Of a DNA stretch of 64,000 nucleotides, positions 1 to 57,335 are shown piece after piece. The notes beneath the pieces were generated by a model that was not told the DNA's origin, did not search any database, and was given only the letters and a program-made list of their open reading frames with translations. Position 1 is the first letter of the stretch, and each line of letters starts with the position of its first letter. Source of the DNA: an uncultured Thiotrichales bacterium (GTDB taxonomy: Bacteria > Pseudomonadota > Gammaproteobacteria > UWMA-0217); contig CAZUJU010000009.1 of the NCBI GenBank assembly GCA_964620675.1, positions 13,943 through 77,942 on the forward strand, written 5' to 3'. A program made the position numbers and the translations under genes.

Positions 1-1043
1 GGCAATGCGATCTGCACGGACTGGAGCATCGCACGTCGATGAACCTGACCCCGCTGATCGCCGCGGTCGCCGCTGGCAATGTGGCGTTGGTCGAAGCTTT
101 GCTCGAACGCGGTGCCGACCCCGGCAGCACAGACCATCTCGGACGCACCGCCCTGCATTGGGCCCTGCTCGGCGCCTTCGACGACAAGAAATACGCGCGC
201 ACCGCGCTGGCGCCGCTATATGAATTGATCGCGCCGGCGACGATCGATTTCAAGGTTGGCGAACGGCTGGTGCGGATCGATCGCCATCTGTCGGAGTACC
301 TTCTGGTCCAAAGTCTGTGGGCGCTGTTCAAGTCGCGCTTCCACGTCCTGAGTTGGCGCGAGCGGTCGGCGTTCGATACCGCGACCTTGCTGGACGCTTG
401 GCAGCACCTGCCACCGAATGTGCTCAAGCCCGAGCGCCATCGGCGTTCATTTCTCTCGGGTGTGCTGTCGCGCAATGAAGTCGAGCGGGACTATGCCTAC
501 AACCGGCATTTGTTCAAACGGGTCGTGATCGGCTGGTATCAGTTCAATCCGGACCTTGCGGTCCGTCGCAAGGCCGCCGATGGGGAGACCTGGCAATCCG
601 TGTTTGTCGCACTCAATCTCGCCTGGATCAAGGAATTTTCAGAACCGCGACATTGGGTGGAGATCGATTCCCGGCTCGCGCAAAGCGGTTGCAGACCCGC
701 TGGCACACCGATTGCCGCCGAGCGTCAGGTCGCGGCGGCACAACGTGAAGCGGCTGCCCGGCGCGAGCATGAGGCGTTGATGGCGAAGCTGCGCGATCGC
801 GAAATCCGACCCCGCGTGGCGTCGCAGCGGTTCCGCGGCAGAGCGAGCGTGCCGGCTGAAACCAAGCCCGCGCCGCCGCCGGTGAATGACCGGGACGACG
901 CTCCGTCGCAACCGCAAGAGCAACCCGCGCCGTGGGGCACCCCGCGGGCGCGGCAGCAAGCCCTGAAAAAGCTACAGCGTCAGATCGAAGAAAACCGGTT
1001 GCGCGAGGCGCGCGAGAAGGCCACGCGCGAGAAGCCGGAATAG
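1..1043 (+). CDS. Ankyrin-repeat protein, 5' partial (reading frame is open to the window start), with a long charged C-terminal tail
   Basis: ORF 39..1043 has the ankyrin motif (TALHWALLGA..., GADPGSTDHLGRTALH). No in-frame stop lies upstream of nt 39 back to nt 3. The C-terminus is a K/E/R/Q-rich low-complexity tail. Confidence 0.6.
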   Translation, partial: QCDLHGLEHRTSMNLTPLIAAVAAGNVALVEALLERGADPGSTDHLGRTALHWALLGAFDDKKYARTALAPLYELIAPATIDFKVGERLVRIDRHLSEYLLVQSLWALFKSRFHVLSWRERSAFDTATLLDAWQHLPPNVLKPERHRRSFLSGVLSRNEVERDYAYNRHLFKRVVIGWYQFNPDLAVRRKAADGETWQSVFVALNLAWIKEFSEPRHWVEIDSRLAQSGCRPAGTPIAAERQVAAAQREAAARREHEALMAKLRDREIRPRVASQRFRGRASVPAETKPAPPPVNDRDDAPSQPQEQPAPWGTPRARQQALKKLQRQIEENRLREAREKATREKPE

Positions 1044-1044
1044 C

Positions 1045-1178
1045 TTTCATGGCGAGGACACCGCCCCGGAGTATGCAAGCCGCGCCGGCCAGGCGGGAAA
1101 AGCCGTGAATCCTTCCCTGGGGGCTCGGCAGTCGCCTCCCTGCGGCCGACGCTCCCGCTTGGCCAACCCGGAGCGGCA
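1045..1178. repeat. Copy A of a structured repeat of about 135 nt, lying between convergent gene ends
   Basis: Near-identical to 29218-29356; both start with tttcatggcga...caccgccccggag and end with ...ggccaacccggagcggca. Internal 11-bp stem GGCCAGGCGGG (1087-1097) pairs with CCCGCTTGGCC (1154-1164) with one G-U wobble. Confidence 0.55.
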
Positions 1179-1264
1179 CCCCTGAGAATCGGATATTTCA
1201 CGCTGACGTGACCGGCGCGTAACGGCTGCAGTGACCGAAGCCGCCGGCATACATCGACGCGTAG

Positions 1265-2644: not shown

Positions 2645-5403
2645 CACGACGTCTCCGGAGTTGGGGTGGATTTTGCTGGCGGCAGCGGCGCGAAGTAACC
2701 GACCGCGAGCATCAGCAGTCCAACGCCGATAAACGAGGCGATCCGGGTCATCCCGCTTTGGCTCGACAAATCGAGCAGGAGCAGCTTGAGCACCGTCAGC
2801 GCCATCAGCGCCGCACCGGCAAACCAGAGCGTGCGCTGGCGCAGGCGAACCGCGAGCACCATGGTGGTCAGTGCGAGGGTGGTCCAGAACAGCGAGAAGG
2901 CCATCTGCACCAGGAGCGAGTTCCACAGCGCATGCCAGCGATAGGGGATATCCGCGAACTGATGCAGGGTCCGCAACAAGGCGGCGTTGGCCCAGTAAAA
3001 GCCGGCGGCGCCGAGCAGCGCGGGCACGCTCGCGCGCGGCGGCGTGAACCCTGCAATCGGATTGCGGCCAAGCGCGTAACCGAAGCGCGCCAACACGGCC
3101 AGCGCCAACAGGCTCGCGAGATCGAGCGGATTGAGCAGCGGGATCGCGGGCAACGGTGCCGCGTTGCCGTCACTGCGCCAGTTGGCGATCAGCAGCCAGA
3201 TTAGCAGCGCCACCGCCAGCGGCAGTCCGGCGCCGAGGCGATAGGCGAGCGGATGGCTCCCGATCGGCCACGGCAAAACCCGTTCCCCGCGCGTGTGCAA
3301 AAACCACAGCGTGACGAGCGGGGCGATGACGATCGCGGCCCACCACCAGGCTTGGGATTCCGGCACGAGCGCGCGCATCCGCCAACCGATCTCCCAGGCG
3401 GCGAGACCCACGCCCACCACCACGCCGAGCGCATGCGGGAGTCCCACCAGCCAGCCGGGCAGCGGCGCGAGTTCACGCGCGTGCCGCCACAACAACAGAT
3501 AGTGCGCGCCGAGCGCGACCGGCCACGCCAGCCAGCCGAACCCGGCGCCGGGATGGGTGATCGTCTCGATGTACAGGCCGGCGCCCAGTATCAACGTCAA
3601 CGCCAACGGAAGCGCCGCGAGCGCAAGCGCTGGCCAGCGCAGCGCGCTCGCGAGCGACGAGAAGCCCAGCGCCGAAACGGCGATAAACCCAAGTTGGGCG
3701 TGCGTTTGAAGCTCCGACTCCGGGACGATACGCGCGAGTTCGCCGAGGCCCGCGGCGTACCACCATCCGGCGCCCCACACGAGCAACCCGCCCGACCAGG
3801 GCCACCGTGCAAACCAGGTGCCGACGCCACCGGAGGGCCCCGCAGGCAAACCTTGGCGACTGTATCGGGCCGAGAACAACCCGGCCACCGCGAGCAACGC
3901 GGCCCCGATAAATCCAGCATGCAGCCAGGCCTCGGCGTCGGCGCCTGCGGGCAGGCGCGTCAGGAACGCGATCCCGGCGAGTCCCTGCAACGCGATCCCG
4001 GCGAGCCAGCTGGTCCAGCGTTGCTGGCGTATTCCGATCCAGAGTAACGCGGCGCCTTCGAGTGCCCAGGTGACCGCGATCCAGCCGCCCGAGAGCGCGA
4101 GCGGAACCGCGAGGGTGAGAAAACCGATACCGAGCGCCAACCAGGATTCGGTTAGCAGACGCAACTCCGCGCGCCGACCGCGCCACAACCACGCGGCGAG
4201 CATCAGATACAACGCGCCGAAGCCGAGCGCGCTAAAGGCGGGGCCGAACGGAATCTCGCGCACCAGCGCATATTGCAGGCTGAAGGCGGTGATCGGGACG
4301 CCGAAGGTGAGCGTCCCGTCCACATAGTCGCGCAACGCGAACGCGGCCCGACGCCGCGCGACCAGCCAGCCGATCGCGAGGTACATCGCGAAGAACAGCA
4401 GCAGAAACGGCTGCGTCGAGGCGTAGTGCTGCGGTCCGTAGTGGAGCACGCCCCAGGCGGCACCAATGACGAAGGTGAAAACAAATCCGAGCACGTTTAG
4501 CACCCGCCAGGCGCGGAACCCGGCGACCAGCAGCACCCCGCCGTTCAGCACCGCGTAGTAGCCGAACAGGGCCACGTGGCTGCCGCCCCCCGAGGACGCC
4601 AGCAGCGGCGCGAGGAAACCGCCGGCGGTGCCCAGCACCGCCAGCGCCAGCGAGTTCTGCGCGACGGCAAGTACGGCCGAGAATCCGGCCAACAACGCAA
4701 GGAGCGCGAACGCCGGAGTGGGCGTCAGAATCTCGAATACCCGCAGCGCGCCAAAGGTCGTCAGGTACAGGATTCCAACTCCGCCGCCTTGCAGCGAGAG
4801 CGCGTAACCGGGGCGGCGGGTACGCAAACGCCAGCCAAGTGCGAGTAATGCGCTACCGAGCAGTGCGGTCGCGGCGAGACGCAACTCGACCGGCAACAGG
4901 GAATGTTCGGCGGCGTACTTCACCAACAGTCCGATGCCGACGAACAGTATGACAATGCCGACGCGCACAATCGTATTGCCGCCGCTCAGCCAGTCGCTTG
5001 CCAGCGCCCAGCCGCGGGCCAGGGGACCGGGGCTCGTCGGCGGGGGCGGAACGGTGTCTTCGGCTTCGATCCAGCGTGCGGCGGGTGCTGGCTCCGGTGC
5101 GGTTACCGTGGGCGCATCTTTGGCGTCGTCCGTGGCCGGTTCGGTCATGGTCGGGGACGATGTCGGCGCGGCGTTGAGGGCCGCGACGCCGAGCGCGGAT
5201 TCGACGCGCTCCAGGCGTTGCGTCAGTGCTTCGAATTGCGTCAAGAGCGCCGGATCGGCCGTAATCGGGTGGCGCCAGCTGAACAGTCCGCCCAGCAACG
5301 CGCCGAACCACGGCAGGGTCGCTCCCGAGACGCCGATTGCTTCGAGCAGCACGGCGGCGATGAGGCCGAAGACGGCACCGATCAGAATTCCTTTCAGGAT
5401 CAT
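2644..5403 (-). CDS. Large polytopic membrane protein (DUF2339-like), 919 aa, with a Pro/Ala/Thr-rich N-terminal linker
   Basis: Many hydrophobic helices throughout. N-terminal TM followed by a low-complexity PT/PA-rich segment. Translationally coupled to the downstream DUF3999-like gene. Confidence 0.6.
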   Translation of the reverse strand: MILKGILIGAVFGLIAAVLLEAIGVSGATLPWFGALLGGLFSWRHPITADPALLTQFEALTQRLERVESALGVAALNAAPTSSPTMTEPATDDAKDAPTVTAPEPAPAARWIEAEDTVPPPPTSPGPLARGWALASDWLSGGNTIVRVGIVILFVGIGLLVKYAAEHSLLPVELRLAATALLGSALLALGWRLRTRRPGYALSLQGGGVGILYLTTFGALRVFEILTPTPAFALLALLAGFSAVLAVAQNSLALAVLGTAGGFLAPLLASSGGGSHVALFGYYAVLNGGVLLVAGFRAWRVLNVLGFVFTFVIGAAWGVLHYGPQHYASTQPFLLLFFAMYLAIGWLVARRRAAFALRDYVDGTLTFGVPITAFSLQYALVREIPFGPAFSALGFGALYLMLAAWLWRGRRAELRLLTESWLALGIGFLTLAVPLALSGGWIAVTWALEGAALLWIGIRQQRWTSWLAGIALQGLAGIAFLTRLPAGADAEAWLHAGFIGAALLAVAGLFSARYSRQGLPAGPSGGVGTWFARWPWSGGLLVWGAGWWYAAGLGELARIVPESELQTHAQLGFIAVSALGFSSLASALRWPALALAALPLALTLILGAGLYIETITHPGAGFGWLAWPVALGAHYLLLWRHARELAPLPGWLVGLPHALGVVVGVGLAAWEIGWRMRALVPESQAWWWAAIVIAPLVTLWFLHTRGERVLPWPIGSHPLAYRLGAGLPLAVALLIWLLIANWRSDGNAAPLPAIPLLNPLDLASLLALAVLARFGYALGRNPIAGFTPPRASVPALLGAAGFYWANAALLRTLHQFADIPYRWHALWNSLLVQMAFSLFWTTLALTTMVLAVRLRQRTLWFAGAALMALTVLKLLLLDLSSQSGMTRIASFIGVGLLMLAVGYFAPLPPAKSTPTPETS

Positions 5404-7621: not shown

Positions 7622-7636
7622 GCGAGAGGTGCTCCT

Positions 7637-8845
7637 TTAATTCTGCGGAAGATGGATGAGGGTATCGCGGATGCGCTCGGCGGCCTCGACGCAGGCCTCA
7701 AGCGGTGCCACGAGCGCGATTCGGACATACTCGCGGCCGGGATTGCCGGCGTCGGTGTCGCGCGACAGATAGCTCCCGGGCAGGACGATGACGTTGCGTT
7801 CGCCGTATAGGCGCCTCGCGAAGGTTTCGCCGTCAACCGGCAGGCGCGGCCACAGGTAAAATCCCGCGGGGGGCACTTCGAGCGGCAATACGCCGTCGAG
7901 CACGGTACGTACCTGGGCGAAGCGCTCGCGGTAGCGCGCTCGGCTCGCGCGCGCATGCACGTCGTCGCGCCAAAGCGCGGCGCTGACGGCTTGGGTCGGT
8001 GGCGGCAACGCGCAGCCGTGATAGGTGCGGTACAACAGAAATCGCTCCAGCACTCGCGCGTCGCCAGCGACGAAGCCCGAGCGAAGTCCGGGCACGTTGG
8101 AGCGTTTCGATAAGCTGTGGAACACGACGCAGCGATGGAATTCGGTGTTGCCGATACGCGCGGCGGCGCCGAGCAAACCCGCGGGCGGGGCCGCTTCGTC
8201 CTGATAAATCTCGGAGTAGCATTCGTCGGCGGCGATAATGAAGTCGTGGCGCTCGGCGAGTTCGATCACGCGGGCCAGGGTGGTTTCGTCGATCACCGCG
8301 CCGCTCGGGTTGCCGGGGGAGCAGAGGTAAAGCAACTGACAGCGCGCCCATTGCGCGGCGGTGACTTGTTCGAACGCCGGCACAAACCCGGTCTCGGCGG
8401 TGCAATTCAAAAAAAGGGGCTCCGCCCCGGCGAGCAGCGCCGCGCCTTCGTAGATCTGGTAGAACGGGTTGGGCATGGCCACGCGCGCGCCCGGGCGCTG
8501 ACGATCGACCACGGCCTGGGCGAATGCGAACAGGGCTTCGCGGGTGCCGCTCACCGGCAAGACGTGGCGTTCGGGATCGACCGCGCCCGCGGGCAGGGTG
8601 AAGCGCTGCGTGAGCCAAGCCGTGATCGCCTGGCGCAAATCGGGCTCGCCCTTGCTCACCGGGTAGCGTCCGAGGCCGGCGAGCTGCGCGCACATCACGT
8701 CTGCGACCAGCGCCGGGGGAGGGTCCTGCGGTTCACCGATCGAGAGCCGGATTGGCGCCAGTTGCGTGGGCGGTGTGACGTCGGAAAACAATCGCGCCAG
8801 TTTCTGGAAGGGGTAGGGTTGCAGTCGCTCCAGGTCGGGATTCAT
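7637..8845 (-). CDS. dapC: Succinyldiaminopimelate aminotransferase (PLP-dependent, fold type I); start at MNPDLERLQPYPF
   Basis: Aminotransferase class I/II features and a DapC-like N-terminus. Lies in the dapD/dapE neighbourhood. Confidence 0.8.
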   Translation of the reverse strand: MNPDLERLQPYPFQKLARLFSDVTPPTQLAPIRLSIGEPQDPPPALVADVMCAQLAGLGRYPVSKGEPDLRQAITAWLTQRFTLPAGAVDPERHVLPVSGTREALFAFAQAVVDRQRPGARVAMPNPFYQIYEGAALLAGAEPLFLNCTAETGFVPAFEQVTAAQWARCQLLYLCSPGNPSGAVIDETTLARVIELAERHDFIIAADECYSEIYQDEAAPPAGLLGAAARIGNTEFHRCVVFHSLSKRSNVPGLRSGFVAGDARVLERFLLYRTYHGCALPPPTQAVSAALWRDDVHARASRARYRERFAQVRTVLDGVLPLEVPPAGFYLWPRLPVDGETFARRLYGERNVIVLPGSYLSRDTDAGNPGREYVRIALVAPLEACVEAAERIRDTLIHLPQN

Positions 8846-27104: not shown

Positions 27105-27877
27105 ATGTACTGGTGTTCGATATCGAGACGGTGCCCGACGTTGACGGGGGGCGCCGGCTTTATGGGCTGGACGGGCTCGACGACGAACGCACCGCCCAGG
27201 CGCTGTTCAGCTTGCGCCAGCAGAAAACCGGCTCCGAGTTCCTTGCCCTGCATTTGCAACGGATCGTTGCGATTTCGGTGGTGTTGCGCACGCGGGATCA
27301 ATTCAAGGTCTGGTCACTCGGTGACGAGGACGCCTCCGAGGCCGAGCTGCTGCGCCGTTTCTTCGACGGGATCGAGCGCTATACCCCAACATTGGTCTCA
27401 TGGAACGGCGCCGGTTTCGATCTGCCGGTGATCCATTATCGCGCGCTGTTGCACGGAGTCGCCGCGCCGCGGTACTGGGATACGGGAGAGGAGGATTCGT
27501 CCTTTCGCTTCAACAACTATCTCAATCGGTTTCAGTGGCGCCACACCGACTTGATGGATGTGCTGGCGCTTTATCAGCTGCGGGCTGCCGCGCCGCTTGA
27601 TGAGATCGCAACCCTGCTAGGCTTTCCGGGCAAGATGGGGATGAGCGGGGCGAAGGTCTGGGACGCGTTTCTGCAGGGCGAAATCCGGGAGATTCGCAAT
27701 TACTGCGAGACCGATGTCCTCAATACCTATCTCGTTTACCTGCGATTCGAACGTTTACGCGGGCACCTCACCGCCGAGGACTGTCAGCGCGAGTGCGATC
27801 TGGTGCGCGATCATCTGCGCGCGGCCGATAAGCCGCACCTGCTCGCGTTCGAACAAGCCTGGCGGAATATCGCTTGA
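27098..27877 (+). CDS. Predicted 3'-5' exonuclease (RNase H-like fold, related to the PolB exonuclease domain)
   Basis: DEDD-type exonuclease N-terminus (MLNVLVFDIETVPD) and a second acidic motif (SWNGAGFDLPV). Overlaps the cysM stop and the rlmD start. Confidence 0.6.
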   Translation: MLNVLVFDIETVPDVDGGRRLYGLDGLDDERTAQALFSLRQQKTGSEFLALHLQRIVAISVVLRTRDQFKVWSLGDEDASEAELLRRFFDGIERYTPTLVSWNGAGFDLPVIHYRALLHGVAAPRYWDTGEEDSSFRFNNYLNRFQWRHTDLMDVLALYQLRAAAPLDEIATLLGFPGKMGMSGAKVWDAFLQGEIREIRNYCETDVLNTYLVYLRFERLRGHLTAEDCQRECDLVRDHLRAADKPHLLAFEQAWRNIA

Positions 27878-29193
27878 GAAAGACCCGCCCGCCCGGGCCG
27901 CCCTATGAGGTCGAGATTGCGTCACTGGCGCAGGACGGCCGTGGTGTCGCGCGCCGGGACGGCAAGGCGGTGTTTGTCGACGGTGCCTTGCCGGGTGAGC
28001 GGGTCTTGGTTCAGCCGGTTGCGCTGCACCGTCAATACGACGAGGCCGTCACCGAGCAGGTGCTGGCGCCATCGCCGGACCGGGTCGAGCCCCGCTGTGC
28101 GCACTTCAAACTCTGCGGTGGGTGCAGCTTGCAGCATCTGCGTTCGGAGCGGCAGATCGAGTTCAAGCAGCAAGCGTTGCTTGATGCGCTGACCCATATC
28201 GGCAAGATCGCGCCGAAAACGGTGCTCGCGCCGCTGCTCGGCCCGGCCTGGGGTTATCGGCGTAAGGCGCGTCTCGGGATGCGGTTTGTGCGCAAGATGG
28301 GGCGAATCGCGATCGGCTTTCGCGAAAAGCACTCCCATTTTGTGACCGATGTCCAAGCGTGTCCGATCCTCGATGCGGCGGTGGGTGACCAGATCGGTGC
28401 GCTCGGCGAGTTGGTGGGGCGCTTGGAAAGGCCGGATAGGATACCGCAGATCGAAATCACCGTGGCCGATCAAGGAGTCGCGCTCGTGATCCGTCATTTG
28501 CAGCCGTTGAGCGCGGCGGATCGGACGCAAATCGAGGCATTTGCCGCGCCGCGCGACTACGCCGTTTATCTCCAGGCAGGTGCGCTGGAGAGCACGATTG
28601 CGCTGCGGGCACCTGCTGCGGGCCTGACTTACACGCATCCGGCGTACGGTTTGCGGCTCGCAGTTCACCCGCAGGACTTTATGCAGGTCAACGCCGAGAT
28701 CAATCGCACGATGGTGCCGTTGGTGCTCGATCTGCTTGCACCCGGTCGCGACGAGGCGGTGCTGGATTTGTTCTGTGGACTCGGGAACTTCACGCTGCCG
28801 CTTGCCACGCTCGCAGCCAGTGTTGTCGGCGTGGAGGCATCGGCGGAGATGGTTCGGCGGGCACGGGCCAATGCCGAGGCGAACGCTCTGAGCAACGCGA
28901 CCTTTCACACCGCCGATCTGTTTGGCGAGATTCGCCACGAAGGGTGGGCGCGGGCGCGATTCGACAAGATTCTGCTCGATCCGCCACGCAGCGGTGCCAA
29001 GGATCTCACGCGAAAACTGGGTTCGTTTCGCGCGCGGCGCATCGTTTACGTTTCATGCCATCCCGGTACGCTGGCCCGGGATGCGAGTGAACTGGTGCAC
29101 GGCCAGGGCTACCGCCTGAGCGCCGCGGGCGTGCTCGATATGTTTCCGCACACCGCGCATGTCGAATCGGTCGCGGTATTCGATCGCAATTGA
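27874..29193 (+). CDS. rlmD: 23S rRNA (uracil1939-C5)-methyltransferase RlmD/RumA
   Basis: TRAM domain, a 4Fe-4S Cys cluster (CAHFKLCGGCSLQH) and a SAM-methyltransferase domain (DLFCGLGNFTLPLA). Confidence 0.85.
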   Translation: MRKTRPPGPPYEVEIASLAQDGRGVARRDGKAVFVDGALPGERVLVQPVALHRQYDEAVTEQVLAPSPDRVEPRCAHFKLCGGCSLQHLRSERQIEFKQQALLDALTHIGKIAPKTVLAPLLGPAWGYRRKARLGMRFVRKMGRIAIGFREKHSHFVTDVQACPILDAAVGDQIGALGELVGRLERPDRIPQIEITVADQGVALVIRHLQPLSAADRTQIEAFAAPRDYAVYLQAGALESTIALRAPAAGLTYTHPAYGLRLAVHPQDFMQVNAEINRTMVPLVLDLLAPGRDEAVLDLFCGLGNFTLPLATLAASVVGVEASAEMVRRARANAEANALSNATFHTADLFGEIRHEGWARARFDKILLDPPRSGAKDLTRKLGSFRARRIVYVSCHPGTLARDASELVHGQGYRLSAAGVLDMFPHTAHVESVAVFDRN

Positions 29194-29217
29194 GCAAAGT
29201 CGGTCGACCGCGTTAAC

Positions 29218-29356
29218 TTTCATGGCGATGGCACCGCCCCGGAGGATGAAAGCCGCTCCGGGCCGGCCAGGCGGGAGACGCCGTGAATCCATCCATGGAG
29301 GCTCGGCAGCCGCCTCCCTGCGGCCGACGCGCCCGTCTGGCCAACCCGGAGCGGCA
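29218..29356. repeat. Copy B of the structured repeat of about 135 nt, between convergent rlmD and the PPIase gene
   Basis: Aligns end to end with 1045-1178. Stem GGCCAGGCGGG (29265-29275) pairs with CCCGTCTGGCC (29332-29342), with the single G-U wobble at a different position from copy A. Confidence 0.55.
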
Positions 29357-29428
29357 GTCGTTCGTTCACGTTAAAGAACGCGGCCGGCCGATTTCAGTCG
29401 AATGATACGAAACGGAAACCGCGGGGCG

Positions 29429-30346
29429 TTACTTTTCGGTCGACGCGTCCGGTTTGCCTGCGGGCTCCGGTGCGGCATCCGAGGGCGCCGCCGCGTCGGC
29501 CTTCGCCTCGATCACGTCAATCTTCGCCGCCTGGCGCAGTGCACCGATATAGCCTTGCATCGCCTTGTTGGTCACGACCATTTCGAGCTGGTCCTTGACC
29601 TCGTCGAATTTTGGCGGATCGCCGACTTTGACGTCATCGAGCTGGATGATGTGCCAGCCGAACTGGCTGCGTACCGGAGTTTCGGTGAATTTGCCTTTCT
29701 CCAGGCCTTGCGTGGCTTCGCCAAATTCGGGCACCACCGCGCTGAGGGGGAACCAGCCCAGATCGCCGCCTTCTGCCGCGCTGGGATCCTTCGACTGGTC
29801 CTTCGCGAGAGCCTCAAACGATTTGCCGGCCTTGAGATCGGCGATGATGGCCTTGGCCGCGTCTTCCTCGTCGACCAGGATATGGCGCGCCTTGTATTCC
29901 TTGAGGTCGAGCTCCTTGATCTGATTGTCGTACTCCTGCTTGAGCACGGCGTCGCTAAAGTCGATCGATTTGCGCTGTTCGCCGATCATGGCGCTGACCA
30001 GAAGCTCATCGCGACGCTTTTCGAGATCGAACTTGAACTCGGCCCGTTCGGCGATCCCTTTGGCGAGGGCGTCCTGTTTGACCAGTTCGCGATTGATCAT
30101 CTCATTGAGCACCAGCGACGGATCGGTGGATTCCGGCGTCCCGGCGAGGGTTTTGGCATTGAGGAATTCGCTAAATGCCTGCAGTGTGATCGGGCGCGAA
30201 TTGACGGTGGCGATCACGTCGCCACCGACCTCCGCCGATGCATTGCGCTCGGATTCGACGGCGGCGGGTGACGAGGCTTGGTCGCACCCACTGAGGGTGA
30301 ATGCCAACAACGCCGCGAGCGCGGACGCGGGGATTGCATAATTCAT
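29429..30346 (-). CDS. PpiC/parvulin-type peptidyl-prolyl isomerase lipoprotein (SurA-like)
   Basis: Lipobox (LSGC) and a parvulin domain (ARHILV, GGDLGWF, FGWHIIQL). Confidence 0.75.
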   Translation of the reverse strand: MNYAIPASALAALLAFTLSGCDQASSPAAVESERNASAEVGGDVIATVNSRPITLQAFSEFLNAKTLAGTPESTDPSLVLNEMINRELVKQDALAKGIAERAEFKFDLEKRRDELLVSAMIGEQRKSIDFSDAVLKQEYDNQIKELDLKEYKARHILVDEEDAAKAIIADLKAGKSFEALAKDQSKDPSAAEGGDLGWFPLSAVVPEFGEATQGLEKGKFTETPVRSQFGWHIIQLDDVKVGDPPKFDEVKDQLEMVVTNKAMQGYIGALRQAAKIDVIEAKADAAAPSDAAPEPAGKPDASTEK

Positions 30347-55959: not shown

Positions 55960-56003
55960 CGGCGCGAAGAGTAGTGTTTAAATATACACTACTCTTCGCG
56001 CCG
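55960..56003. promoter_or_regulatory. Perfect 18-bp-stem palindrome 5-8 nt upstream of the dnaE2 start codon; core GTGT-N8-ACAC resembles a LexA (CTGT-N8-ACAG) SOS box
   Basis: GCGCGAAGAGTAGTGT-ttaaatat-ACACTACTCTTCGCGC at 55962-56001, with the flanking c/g pair extending the stem to 18 bp. AT-rich 8-nt spacer. Overlaps the expected ribosome-binding-site region. Confidence 0.5.
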
Positions 56004-56182: not shown

Positions 56183-56905
56183 TCATACTTCAAACCGCAC
56201 AATCGGCTCGGAGCGCTCATAAACCTGGGTGATGCGTTCGCCGTTCCAGACATAGACGAGGTGCGCGCCTTGGATCGGTGCGGAAACGGCCGGCGGACGC
56301 AACGCGGCGATGCATTCACCGCCGGGGTGGCGCACGCTGCGGTAATAAAGCCCCCATGAACCGGTTGCGCGCAGTGACTGGGCGTAGGCTTGCGCGAGCG
56401 GATGGTCGCCCGGGTCGGGGGCCGCGTCGTGTAATGGATCGAATTCGGGTAGGCGGATGTCGTGCAGCGGCTTTTGTACCCGGCCGATCCAGGCGCGCAG
56501 ACTGAACTCGGTCTCGCTCAGGGCCGCGTGGCGAGCGATGCGTTCGCGGTGGTGCACGGTCTCGCGAATCGCGGTTTCGAGCGTACGCCCGGCGTAGTAA
56601 ACACCGTAACTGCCATCGCTGAAGCGCGATGGCCAGCCAATGTGGGTGAATGCCGCCATGACAATGCTGGCCCCGGGTCCGCTCAGACGGTCGACCGCCG
56701 CGACCCGGTGCAGGTCTCCGGTTTCTTCGAGGAGGCGCGGATTGGTCCGCGTTTCCAGTTCCCACACGGCGCCGAGAAGGTCGGAGGGCACGTGGCGTTC
56801 GAAGAAGTCAATCGGTGGATAGCGGGTGGCAATGATGCGGTACTGCTTGCCGGGCGGCCGCAGGATTGCGGGCAGGGGCAGGGCTTCCAGGCCCGGTGAA
56901 TTCAT
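56183..56905 (-). CDS. RES-domain toxin (RES-Xre toxin-antitoxin system; NAD+-targeting family)
   Basis: RES-domain features: conserved R...E...S spacing including YRIIATRYPPIDFFER and GSWGLYYRS. Preceded by a DUF2384-type antitoxin gene with a 10-nt gap. Confidence 0.75.
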   Translation of the reverse strand: MNSPGLEALPLPAILRPPGKQYRIIATRYPPIDFFERHVPSDLLGAVWELETRTNPRLLEETGDLHRVAAVDRLSGPGASIVMAAFTHIGWPSRFSDGSYGVYYAGRTLETAIRETVHHRERIARHAALSETEFSLRAWIGRVQKPLHDIRLPEFDPLHDAAPDPGDHPLAQAYAQSLRATGSWGLYYRSVRHPGGECIAALRPPAVSAPIQGAHLVYVWNGERITQVYERSEPIVRFEV

Positions 56906-56915
56906 GCCGGCCTAT

Positions 56916-57335
56916 TCAACCGCGCGCGGCGTCGAGGTAACGGCGGACGTCGGCCAGCGCGACCAGCGAACCGCTCAAGAGATAATCCAGCGGCGCGCGG
57001 CCTTGGAATAGCGGATCGCCGTTGGGGTTTTTCAACCATTCGCGCGCGCTGCGGTCGGAAAACAAAATATGCAGCGCCTTGTAGATGCCGAGCAGGTAGC
57101 TGATGCGATCGAGTGTGTCGCGCGAGAGTTGGCCGGCAAGATGTTTCTTCCATTTGAAAAAGGTCGAACGGGCCGGATCGCCGAGCAATACGCGCTGTTG
57201 TTCGTTGTCCAGGTTCCATTCGCTGGCAATCGAGAAGAACGCGGTCAGACCCGCTGCGGCAAGTTGGGCCTCGGAGTACTGCGGCGTGGCGATCGTATAG
57301 ACGGACCTGTGATCAGCGATTTGCATGGCGGACAA
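56916..57335 (-). CDS. Xre-like/DUF2384 antitoxin of the RES-Xre pair
   Basis: 139 aa, with the C-terminal DUF2384-like motif (DPLFQGRAPLDYLLSGSLVALADVRRYLDAA) seen in MbcA/ParS-type antitoxins. Confidence 0.7.
   Translation of the reverse strand: MSAMQIADHRSVYTIATPQYSEAQLAAAGLTAFFSIASEWNLDNEQQRVLLGDPARSTFFKWKKHLAGQLSRDTLDRISYLLGIYKALHILFSDRSAREWLKNPNGDPLFQGRAPLDYLLSGSLVALADVRRYLDAARG

Follow-up and report, generated by a model that had tools for sequence, protein, structure and literature searches.

Two intergenic hairpin repeats of an uncultured Thiotrichales bacterium as probable members of the YPAL/RU-2 superfamily of miniature mobile elements

Introduction

A structured repeat of about 135 nt occurs twice in a stretch of 64,000 nucleotides (contig CAZUJU010000009.1 of assembly GCA_964620675.1, positions 13,943 to 77,942 of the forward strand; hereafter the window), each time between the tails of two convergent genes. 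The DNA belongs to an uncultured gammaproteobacterium of the Thiotrichales that was recovered from a stromatolite metagenome; the window corresponds to positions 23,488-87,487 of contig JBHJNS010000050.1 (GCA_050330555.1), and its rlmD product is identical to a protein of a Thiotrichales MAG at NCBI. The locus raises a simple question, what is this repeat? An initial annotation, made from the sequence alone, proposed a bidirectional terminator, a repetitive extragenic palindrome (REP)-like element or a small RNA (sRNA). We find that the tip of the hairpin formed by the repeat is the central part of YPAL, also known as RU-2, a dispersed repeat of Yersinia, and that each copy probably arose by a separate insertion of a miniature mobile element, non-autonomous and hairpin-forming, that belongs to the YPAL/RU-2 superfamily. 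Throughout, orientations are named W for the + strand of the window, where the tip loops read UCCNU, and F for the - strand, where they read ANGGAN.

Results

Two related elements with unrelated flanks

Copy A lies at positions 1045-1178 and copy B at 29218-29356, both on the + strand (W), and both begin with tttcatggcga and end with ccaacccggagcggca, exactly as first annotated. Aligned with blastn over 134/139 nt, the copies are 87% identical (E 3e-45); their similarity is real, yet the description "near-identical" overstated it. One 5-nt indel separates them, copy A being without TCCGG. The similarity, which also served to delimit copy A, ends at the element boundaries and the flanks are unrelated, therefore the pair did not arise by a segmental duplication that included the flanking genes. 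No third copy was found in the window by blastn, the remaining matches being short and due to chance. A covariance model of the family (R1), run on the window with filters off, scored copy B at 82.1 bits, copy A at 74.9 bits and the next match at 12.8 bits (E 0.47); the scores of the two copies are partly by construction, as both were in the training alignment of R1. Nor did a covariance model find a further copy in an extra ~14 kb of the source contig.

A conserved open reading frame across the element was ruled out, as the 5-nt indel puts the two copies in different frames. The cores of known self-cleaving ribozymes (hammerhead, twister and others) were rejected as well, with no core motif visible by eye and no Rfam match.

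The hairpin tip is that of YPAL, RU-2 and Ysr224

In both copies a tip of ~58 nt aligns with the centre of RU-2 of Y. pestis CO92, nearly all unpaired positions being identical. The centre of RU-2, ...gtaaagCGTCCGCGCCAAGGATGGCGCGGCTCGAGCCTACATGGATGTATTTACGGCGTctttac..., is the window tip read on the opposite strand. RU-2 is a 168-nt repeat and is the same as the YPAL of De Gregorio et al. 2006 (Delihas 2007; PMC2759123, Table 1b). The shared central stretch runs CGTC, hairpin, GNCGAGCC, hairpin, TTYAC-GGCGT. The likeness goes beyond the tip: in both cases the elements are long imperfect palindromes without coding capacity, dispersed between genes, inserted near gene ends, with filled and empty sites in related genomes and with target duplications of varying length, which at the window copies are candidates. 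In contrast, the arms of the window copies are unrelated in sequence to those of YPAL, their length is 134-139 nt instead of 167-168 nt, and their outer stem of 26 bp exceeds that of YPAL, which is interrupted (6 + 6 bp), in both length and pairing. The hosts differ too, a Thiotrichales metagenome-assembled genome (MAG) of 62% GC as against Yersinia or Pectobacterium; GC of the window itself is 61.6%.

A search of the whole window against Rfam, one of the checks proposed at the outset, gave no match at the gathering thresholds. The sole Rfam family that recognises the tip, and weakly, is Ysr224 (RF02770). Its consensus contains the same tip, with both hairpins, the bulge and the junction, whereas the model as a whole consists of one arm plus the tip and draws another structure for the region of the first tip hairpin (P2). 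Metagenome loci with Yersinia-type arms (L077, L078 and L113) reach 99-125 bits for Ysr224. Since elements with YPAL-type arms pass the Ysr224 model and the tips align, the chain that leads from the window copies through the metagenome family and Ysr224 to YPAL is closed.

YPAL is present in 37-144 copies in most Yersinia genomes. Delihas 2008, citing De Gregorio et al. 2006, gives target duplications of 3-26 bp, targets at or near dyad symmetries, sites that prove filled or empty when Y. pestis is compared with Y. pseudotuberculosis, and co-transcription of YPAL with upstream genes, with a possible effect on transcript stability. Genome-wide counts of Rfam families rank Ysr224 with the "most abundant sRNAs", as would be expected of a repeat.

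A conserved tip on a hypervariable stem

How widely is the tip distributed? An exact 20-mer scan of species-representative genomes missed the source genome and returned mostly chance matches and two leads, L009 (a Pseudomonadota MAG) and L011 (a Ca. Thiodiazotropha MAG), which have ~50-60 nt of the tip in common with the window and quite different stems. A degenerate core pattern built from these two and the window copies was run on metagenomes and matched at least 120 stretches. Many of the matches lie at contig ends, which indicates a repeat that breaks assemblies. Among the matches listed, 127 were left after three chance matches had been dropped, and 114 distinct sequences were aligned. 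The search pattern fixes GTRAAY, GCTCG, TCCCTG and GACG, and therefore their invariance in the aligned set is not evidence. A covariance model made from the alignment found 125 matches in 99 loci and 27 more in a further 29 sources; over 20 of the copies that it found fall outside the search pattern. The tip is present in at least 140 hairpin repeats from metagenomes and MAGs, with up to four copies on one 14-kb metagenome contig. Its range takes in Yersinia, Thiotrichales, Ca. Thiodiazotropha and many uncultured lineages, the GC of the hosts running from 0.40 to 0.72 (40-72%). Among PLSDB plasmids, blastn gave no match to the element and the consensus tip matched two Yersinia plasmids only, while the Ysr224-type core had no match in E. 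coli genomes. In viral contigs the core pattern gave one match, which lies in a coding region and was rejected as chance. A search of the literature for the core sequence itself found nothing.

The consensus starts from the outer stem P1 and reads AC-GCC-GURAA, then P2 (UAC-N-UCC-N-U-GUA), GGC-U-CG-R, then P3 (7 bp, loop N-UCC-N-U) and A-CG, before the returning arm P1'. The initial annotation had asked for a structure supported by covariation and counted the lack of a conserved structure in additional copies against the element; we find a covariation-supported structure in many relatives. Standard pairs make up 91.1% of cells, against 65.4% in column shuffles and 31-40% when the partners are slid, and changes on both sides of a pair occur in 889 cells against 277 in shuffles. 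RNAalifold independently gives P1, P2 and P3, with 27 pairs, 23 of them carrying compensatory changes. P1 is typically 25-33 bp long and often perfect, and its sequence differs even among copies on one contig. Between 49 lineages, mean pairwise identity is 0.34 in the stem versus 0.70 in those tip columns that are not fixed by the pattern. A divergent sub-family, seen in L072 (4977-5060 and 5599-5683) and L093 (12592-12676 and 13213-13296), keeps both ATCCNTG loops and has the GTGAA bulge, GCTCG and GACG replaced; the loops are thus the most durable part of the tip.

One feature of P1 depends on the strand. Its mismatches are A·C in the + orientation of the window, equivalent to G·U on F, far more often than G·T (44 versus 12.5, a ratio of ~3.5 to 1, p 5e-5, counted after clustering into 52 lineages; 25 clusters versus 4). 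The asymmetry is located in columns 1-15 with 71-85 of alignment A2 and beyond, and is not seen in P2 or P3. It points to the F strand folding as a single strand, be it as RNA or, in the course of mobilisation, as single-stranded DNA. No explanation that we examined accounts for it.

Could the outer stem be a pre-existing terminator or palindrome that the tip invaded? This was ruled out by stems of 25-33 bp, by the lack of T runs and by the lack of tip-less arms. No such "empty" arms were found in 0.9 Mb around the elements, hence the tip and its arms travel together.

Rearranged forms of the palindrome were also seen. In L047, L049, L062 (5836-5917) and L115, which have the outer stem ACATTAGATAGCCGAC..., the inner segments are inverted relative to the outer ones, with differing break points. 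In these "flip-flop" forms either stem and tip together or the tip alone is inverted with respect to the asymmetric flanks (ACTAATGAGT ... TCGGCTTAGTAA) and to an A·C mismatch that serves as a marker. They look like the products of crossover or template switching between the arms at different depths. Exchange of this kind between the arms, by correction or by inversion, may then keep them complementary in place of selection on every single pair. Given that arm exchange could maintain pairing, covariation in P1 is by itself no proof of an RNA function.

Evidence for insertion

The site of copy B can be compared with a relative whose rlmD is 78% identical. Gene order is kept in the relative, and the spacer between rlmD and the PPIase gene is 61 bp, versus 235 bp in the window; the shorter spacer holds a small hairpin and T-run of its own. 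The clearest target duplications come from a metagenome lineage, CAJIAT, in which four elements are bounded by 10-bp direct repeats: CGCGAGGAGG, CCCTCTCTCG, CATCGGCGCG and CGGGGCGCCG/CGGGGCCCCG. The CAJIAT elements have imperfect terminal inverted repeats and a full length of ~157 nt. In other lineages the termini differ and lengths reach ~250 nt.

At the window copies the signs of insertion were read directly from the sequence. For copy A the candidate left duplication (GAGAAGCCGGAATAG) lies at 1029-1043 (+) and spans the stop codon of the upstream gene, and its candidate partner (GAGAATCGGATAT) lies at 1184-1196 (+); the match is weak and imperfect, at ~12/15 with two gaps. For copy B the candidate duplications are CGTTAA at 29211-29216 (+), 6 bp that may have arisen by chance, and a weak CGTTAA at 29369-29374 (+). 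If the latter is the true partner, the 3' end of copy B would be near 29368.

Several points weigh against the two copies being members of a YPAL-like mobile family. The candidate target duplications in the window are weak, with just 6 bp at copy B and an imperfectly matched ~13-15 bp at copy A. No transposase was found near the elements, and a crude regular expression for the HUH motif detected no HUH transposase in 0.9 Mb of flanks. The terminal repeats vary between lineages, which is unusual for miniature elements mobilised by a transposase. Just two copies are present in the ~78 kb of source contig scanned. Outside the tip, the arms have no clear sequence similarity to those of YPAL, and the window copies reach 19 bits for Ysr224 (E 0.056, permissive scan) versus a gathering threshold of 70. 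With these points taken into account, the conserved structure, the position close to gene 3' ends, the shorter spacer of the relative, the direct repeats of CAJIAT and the alignment of the tip still make insertion of a YPAL/RU-2-type element likely.

Anatomy and folding of the two copies

Along the + strand each element opens with an extension of 34 nt, continues with an arm of 26 nt (21 nt in copy A) and a tip of ~52 nt, and closes with the complementary arm of 26 nt. In copy B, which is intact by blastn, by its R1 score and by its RNA fold, the extension at 29218-29251 lies outside the main hairpin and folds as a small hairpin of its own. The 5' arm of P1 (26 nt) follows at 29252-29277, the conserved tip at 29278-29329 and the 3' arm of P1 (26 nt) at 29330-29355. 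Within the tip, the junction ACGCC occupies 29278-29282, the bulge GTGAA 29283-29287, P2 (TCCATCCATGGA) 29288-29299, GGC-T 29300-29303 and P3 29304-29329. Read on the - strand, the loops of the tip are CAGGGAGG and CATGGATG, 23 nt apart.

Copy A repeats this plan, with the extension (TTTCATGGCGAGGACACCGCCCCGGAGTATGCAA), common to copy B and likewise outside the hairpin, at 1045-1078, the shortened 5' arm of 21 nt, without TCCGG, at 1079-1099, the tip at 1100-1151 and the 3' arm at 1152-1177. Its junction is AAGCC (1100-1104), followed by the bulge GTGAA (1105-1109), P2 (1110-1121), GGC-T (1122-1125) and P3 (1126-1151). An extension of 34 nt on the same side is found in the CAJIAT lineage also, and the stretch in copy A aligns loosely with a YPAL arm.

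The two copies differ in folding. The hairpin of copy B is very stable on both strands (-74 to -83 kcal/mol, z -3.3 to -4.8), the whole copy giving -80.9 kcal/mol, z -4.1, as W and -83.2 kcal/mol, z -3.3, as F. Copy A folds no better than shuffled sequences (z -0.9, -0.1 and +0.2). With 5 nt gone from one arm and folding at the level of shuffles, copy A looks decayed and is probably a relic.

Neighbouring genes, position and orientation

The neighbours named in the initial annotation were confirmed with Pfam, and both sites are tail-to-tail intergenic regions between convergent genes. Copy A stands between an open reading frame with ankyrin repeats (Ank; ends at 1043, +) and the DUF3999 gene (1265-2926, -), copy B between rlmD (27874-29193, +) and a PPIC-type PPIase gene (29429-30346, -). 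Positions 1-1043 of the window, first labelled as the ankyrin gene, are in fact the C-terminal end of a longer helicase-like/ankyrin protein of 1049 aa, which starts upstream of the window and has faint matches to UvrD-helicase and AAA_19 besides the repeats. Copy A begins one base past the TAG stop codon (1041-1043) of that gene, and copy B 24 nt past the stop codon of rlmD.

Genes around the other family members were called with a codon log-odds caller trained on the window, which reproduced 25/25 known genes on a test locus. Of the 139 flanks scored across loci, 80 place an element beside a gene 3' end and 59 beside a 5' end, with a median distance of 48-62 nt to 3' ends versus 108-169 nt to 5' ends. 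They show no orientation preference relative to genes (42 W versus 38 F beside 3' ends; also 27 versus 32), which argues against a strand-specific role in cis. A scan for promoter-like and terminator-like sites found none at either window copy, on either strand.

Further observations on family members and the window

In L143, a Logan contig of 5194 nt with its element at 5074-5155, and also in L024, L045, L051, L065, L079 and L114, the contig ends in or beside the element, and the family seems to be a frequent cause of breaks in metagenome assemblies. The member in the Pseudomonadota MAG L009 (7433-7603) has a perfect stem of ~44 bp and precedes the gene for RNase P RNA (7636-7983; RF00010, 324 bits) by ~30 nt. 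TTAG(T) is enriched 5-20 nt past the 3' arm, at 19 in 74 flanks versus 1 for the control word CTAA in the same place; it is found in the 3' flanks of about a quarter of the members (for example L042, L044, L050, L070, L103, L104 and L108), and CTAA, its mirror form, is likewise over-represented in the 5' flanks. TTAG/CTAA is probably a terminal motif of some lineages.

Elsewhere in the window, the 12.8-bit match of R1 at 55960-56003 is a 44-nt palindrome, not related to the family, that scores equally on both strands (E 0.47). On one side of it dnaE starts (~55955, - strand), and on the other a RES-domain gene ends. At ~56183-57326 (- strand) Pfam places this RES-domain toxin gene beside an Xre-like / MbcA-ParS antitoxin gene, and the palindrome may be the terminator of the RES/Xre pair. 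Small genes at ~50180-51303 have weak matches to type III secretion families (Yop-YscD_cpl and HrpB1_HrpK).

Discussion

The design of the window elements can be put together as follows. A 26-bp outer stem, specific to the lineage, carries a tip of ~58 nt that is conserved across the superfamily, with a 34-nt extension on one side. The tip forms two small hairpins, whose loops read NUCCNU, together with a GURAA bulge and a short junction. The element may spread by transposition with an enzyme supplied in trans. When transcribed within the 3' end of a neighbouring gene, the hairpin of copy B could alter mRNA decay, to judge by published work on YPAL. In size (~100-200 bp), absence of genes, hairpin formation and intergenic dispersal the elements are comparable to ERIC/IRU, Correia/NEMIS, RUP and further miniature inverted-repeat elements of bacteria, which are co-transcribed with their neighbours and affect mRNA decay. 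However, those families have conserved terminal inverted repeats, whereas here the termini vary by lineage and the tip is conserved.

Given these properties, do the three functions first suggested explain the repeat better? The idea of a REP-like element was right in spirit, inasmuch as both are short, palindromic, structured repeats dispersed between genes, but the class is that of the YPAL/RU-2 hairpin miniature insertion sequences. In its strict form, in which an HUH tyrosine transposase (RAYT or IS200/IS605 TnpA) would handle the element as single-stranded DNA and recognise the tip hairpins, as with REPs and REPINs, we regard it as unlikely. The strand-specific tolerance of wobbles in the stem fits an intermediate made from one DNA strand, and every copy, both window copies included, has CGTC ahead of P3 on the F strand, as in CGTC-tagged REPs. 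Di Nocera et al. 2013 described CGTC-tagged REP dimers of Halothiobacillus neapolitanus inside 41-bp palindromes followed by "attcacg", which matches ATTCACGG on the F strand of the tip; we take this as a lead only. Yet GACG/CGTC was set by the search pattern and its invariance is not independent evidence, while GTAG, which belongs to the P2 stem, covaries there and is not conserved. In length the element exceeds a REP 3-6 times, and its long outer stem encloses two unlike, directly oriented hairpins. The crude HUH-motif search detected no RAYT in 0.9 Mb of flanks, and the clean 10-bp duplications of one lineage do not fit insertion of the IS200/IS605 type, which creates none. An element that acts mainly as a terminator or transcriptional insulator, its GC-rich hairpin stopping or pausing RNA polymerase from either side, is less likely still. 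It would agree with the position of both copies between convergent genes, with the stability of copy B on either strand and with the preference of the family for the 3' side of genes. The bidirectional terminator originally proposed nevertheless finds no T/U tract after the stem on either strand and no terminator-like site at A or B; copy A folds poorly, many members adjoin gene starts (59 of the 139 scored flanks), a related genome manages with a 61-bp spacer that has its own small hairpin and T-run, and the conservation of the tip sequence would be left unexplained. As for two copies of an independently transcribed gene for a small regulatory RNA, we consider this highly improbable. What speaks for it is that Rfam classes the Yersinia relatives as the sRNA Ysr224, which is listed as temperature-responsive, and only through that listing does the sRNA suggestion stand. 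Against it are the score of 19 bits where 70 are needed and the lack of promoter-like or terminator-like sites at the window copies. Copies by the dozen in a genome, with hypervariable arms and in either orientation, are moreover typical of repeats and not of sRNA genes, and it is as a repeat that Ysr224 counts as "most abundant".

A further possibility concerns what the tip might bind. On the F strand its loops read C-ANGGAN-G and are 23 nt apart, and the tip may be a portable tandem site for CsrA/RsmA that would accommodate one CsrA dimer; from sequence motifs, we rate this as doubtful. Were CsrA to bind, transcripts next to an element would come under Csr control or CsrA itself would be titrated, consequences that we hold to be equally doubtful. 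The - strands of both window copies carry CAGGGAGG plus CATGGATG or CAGGGAAG, 23 nt apart, and match at the sequence level the CsrA/RsmE consensus (A/U)CANGGANG(U/A), which is given with the SELEX (systematic evolution of ligands by exponential enrichment) sequence in PMC6849547. Among 114 elements, CANGGANG occurs twice on the F strand in 79 and at least once in 111, and is nearly absent from the other strand. Variation in the loops falls exactly on those positions that the published consensus leaves as N, 28 elements carry UACARGGAUGU in P2 (11/12 SELEX positions), and copies that the covariance model found outside the search pattern keep the loop (ATCCATG, ATCCGTG or ATCCTTG), even in the divergent sub-family, from which the motifs of bulge and junction are gone. 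The bias of outer-stem mismatches toward F-strand wobbles (44 versus 12.5) is in the same direction. Like CsrB, RsmY and RsmZ, the tip has GGA hairpins with an ANGGAN loop closed by C-G that fits the SELEX and RsmE consensus sequences; unlike them, it has two sites only, in a mobile repeat inserted in both orientations instead of an sRNA gene controlled by GacA/UvrY, and no Rfam family of CsrA-titrating RNAs matched the element. The absence of orientation bias (42 W versus 38 F at 3' ends) means that about half of the copies would be transcribed without GGA loops, and at both window copies the sense strand of the closer gene is the one without GGA. In addition, the motif of the P3 loop is in part imposed by the search pattern, the wobble asymmetry does not extend to P2 and P3, csrA was not seen in the window, and we found no link between YPAL and CsrA in the literature.

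For the window, then, the result is mainly one of annotation: both copies should be labelled as YPAL-like miniature insertion sequences, and not as a new RNA gene or terminator. For the family the consequences are wider. The usual pattern of miniature transposons is reversed, the middle being conserved and the ends not. Tentatively, the tip of ~58 nt might be a functional module retained across gammaproteobacterial orders, either a pair of ANGGAN hairpins, 23 nt apart on a hypervariable stem that corrects itself, that would scatter CsrA sites or act as a sponge, or a recognition site for a strand-specific mobilising enzyme, and this we consider doubtful as well. As hypotheses beyond what is established here, the breadth of the family and its CsrA-like tip merit a small follow-up. 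The Rfam model of Ysr224 covers the enterobacterial branch alone. A far larger gammaproteobacterial family, recognisable only by the tip of its hairpin, seems to include YPAL, known from Yersinia and Pectobacterium, as one of its branches.

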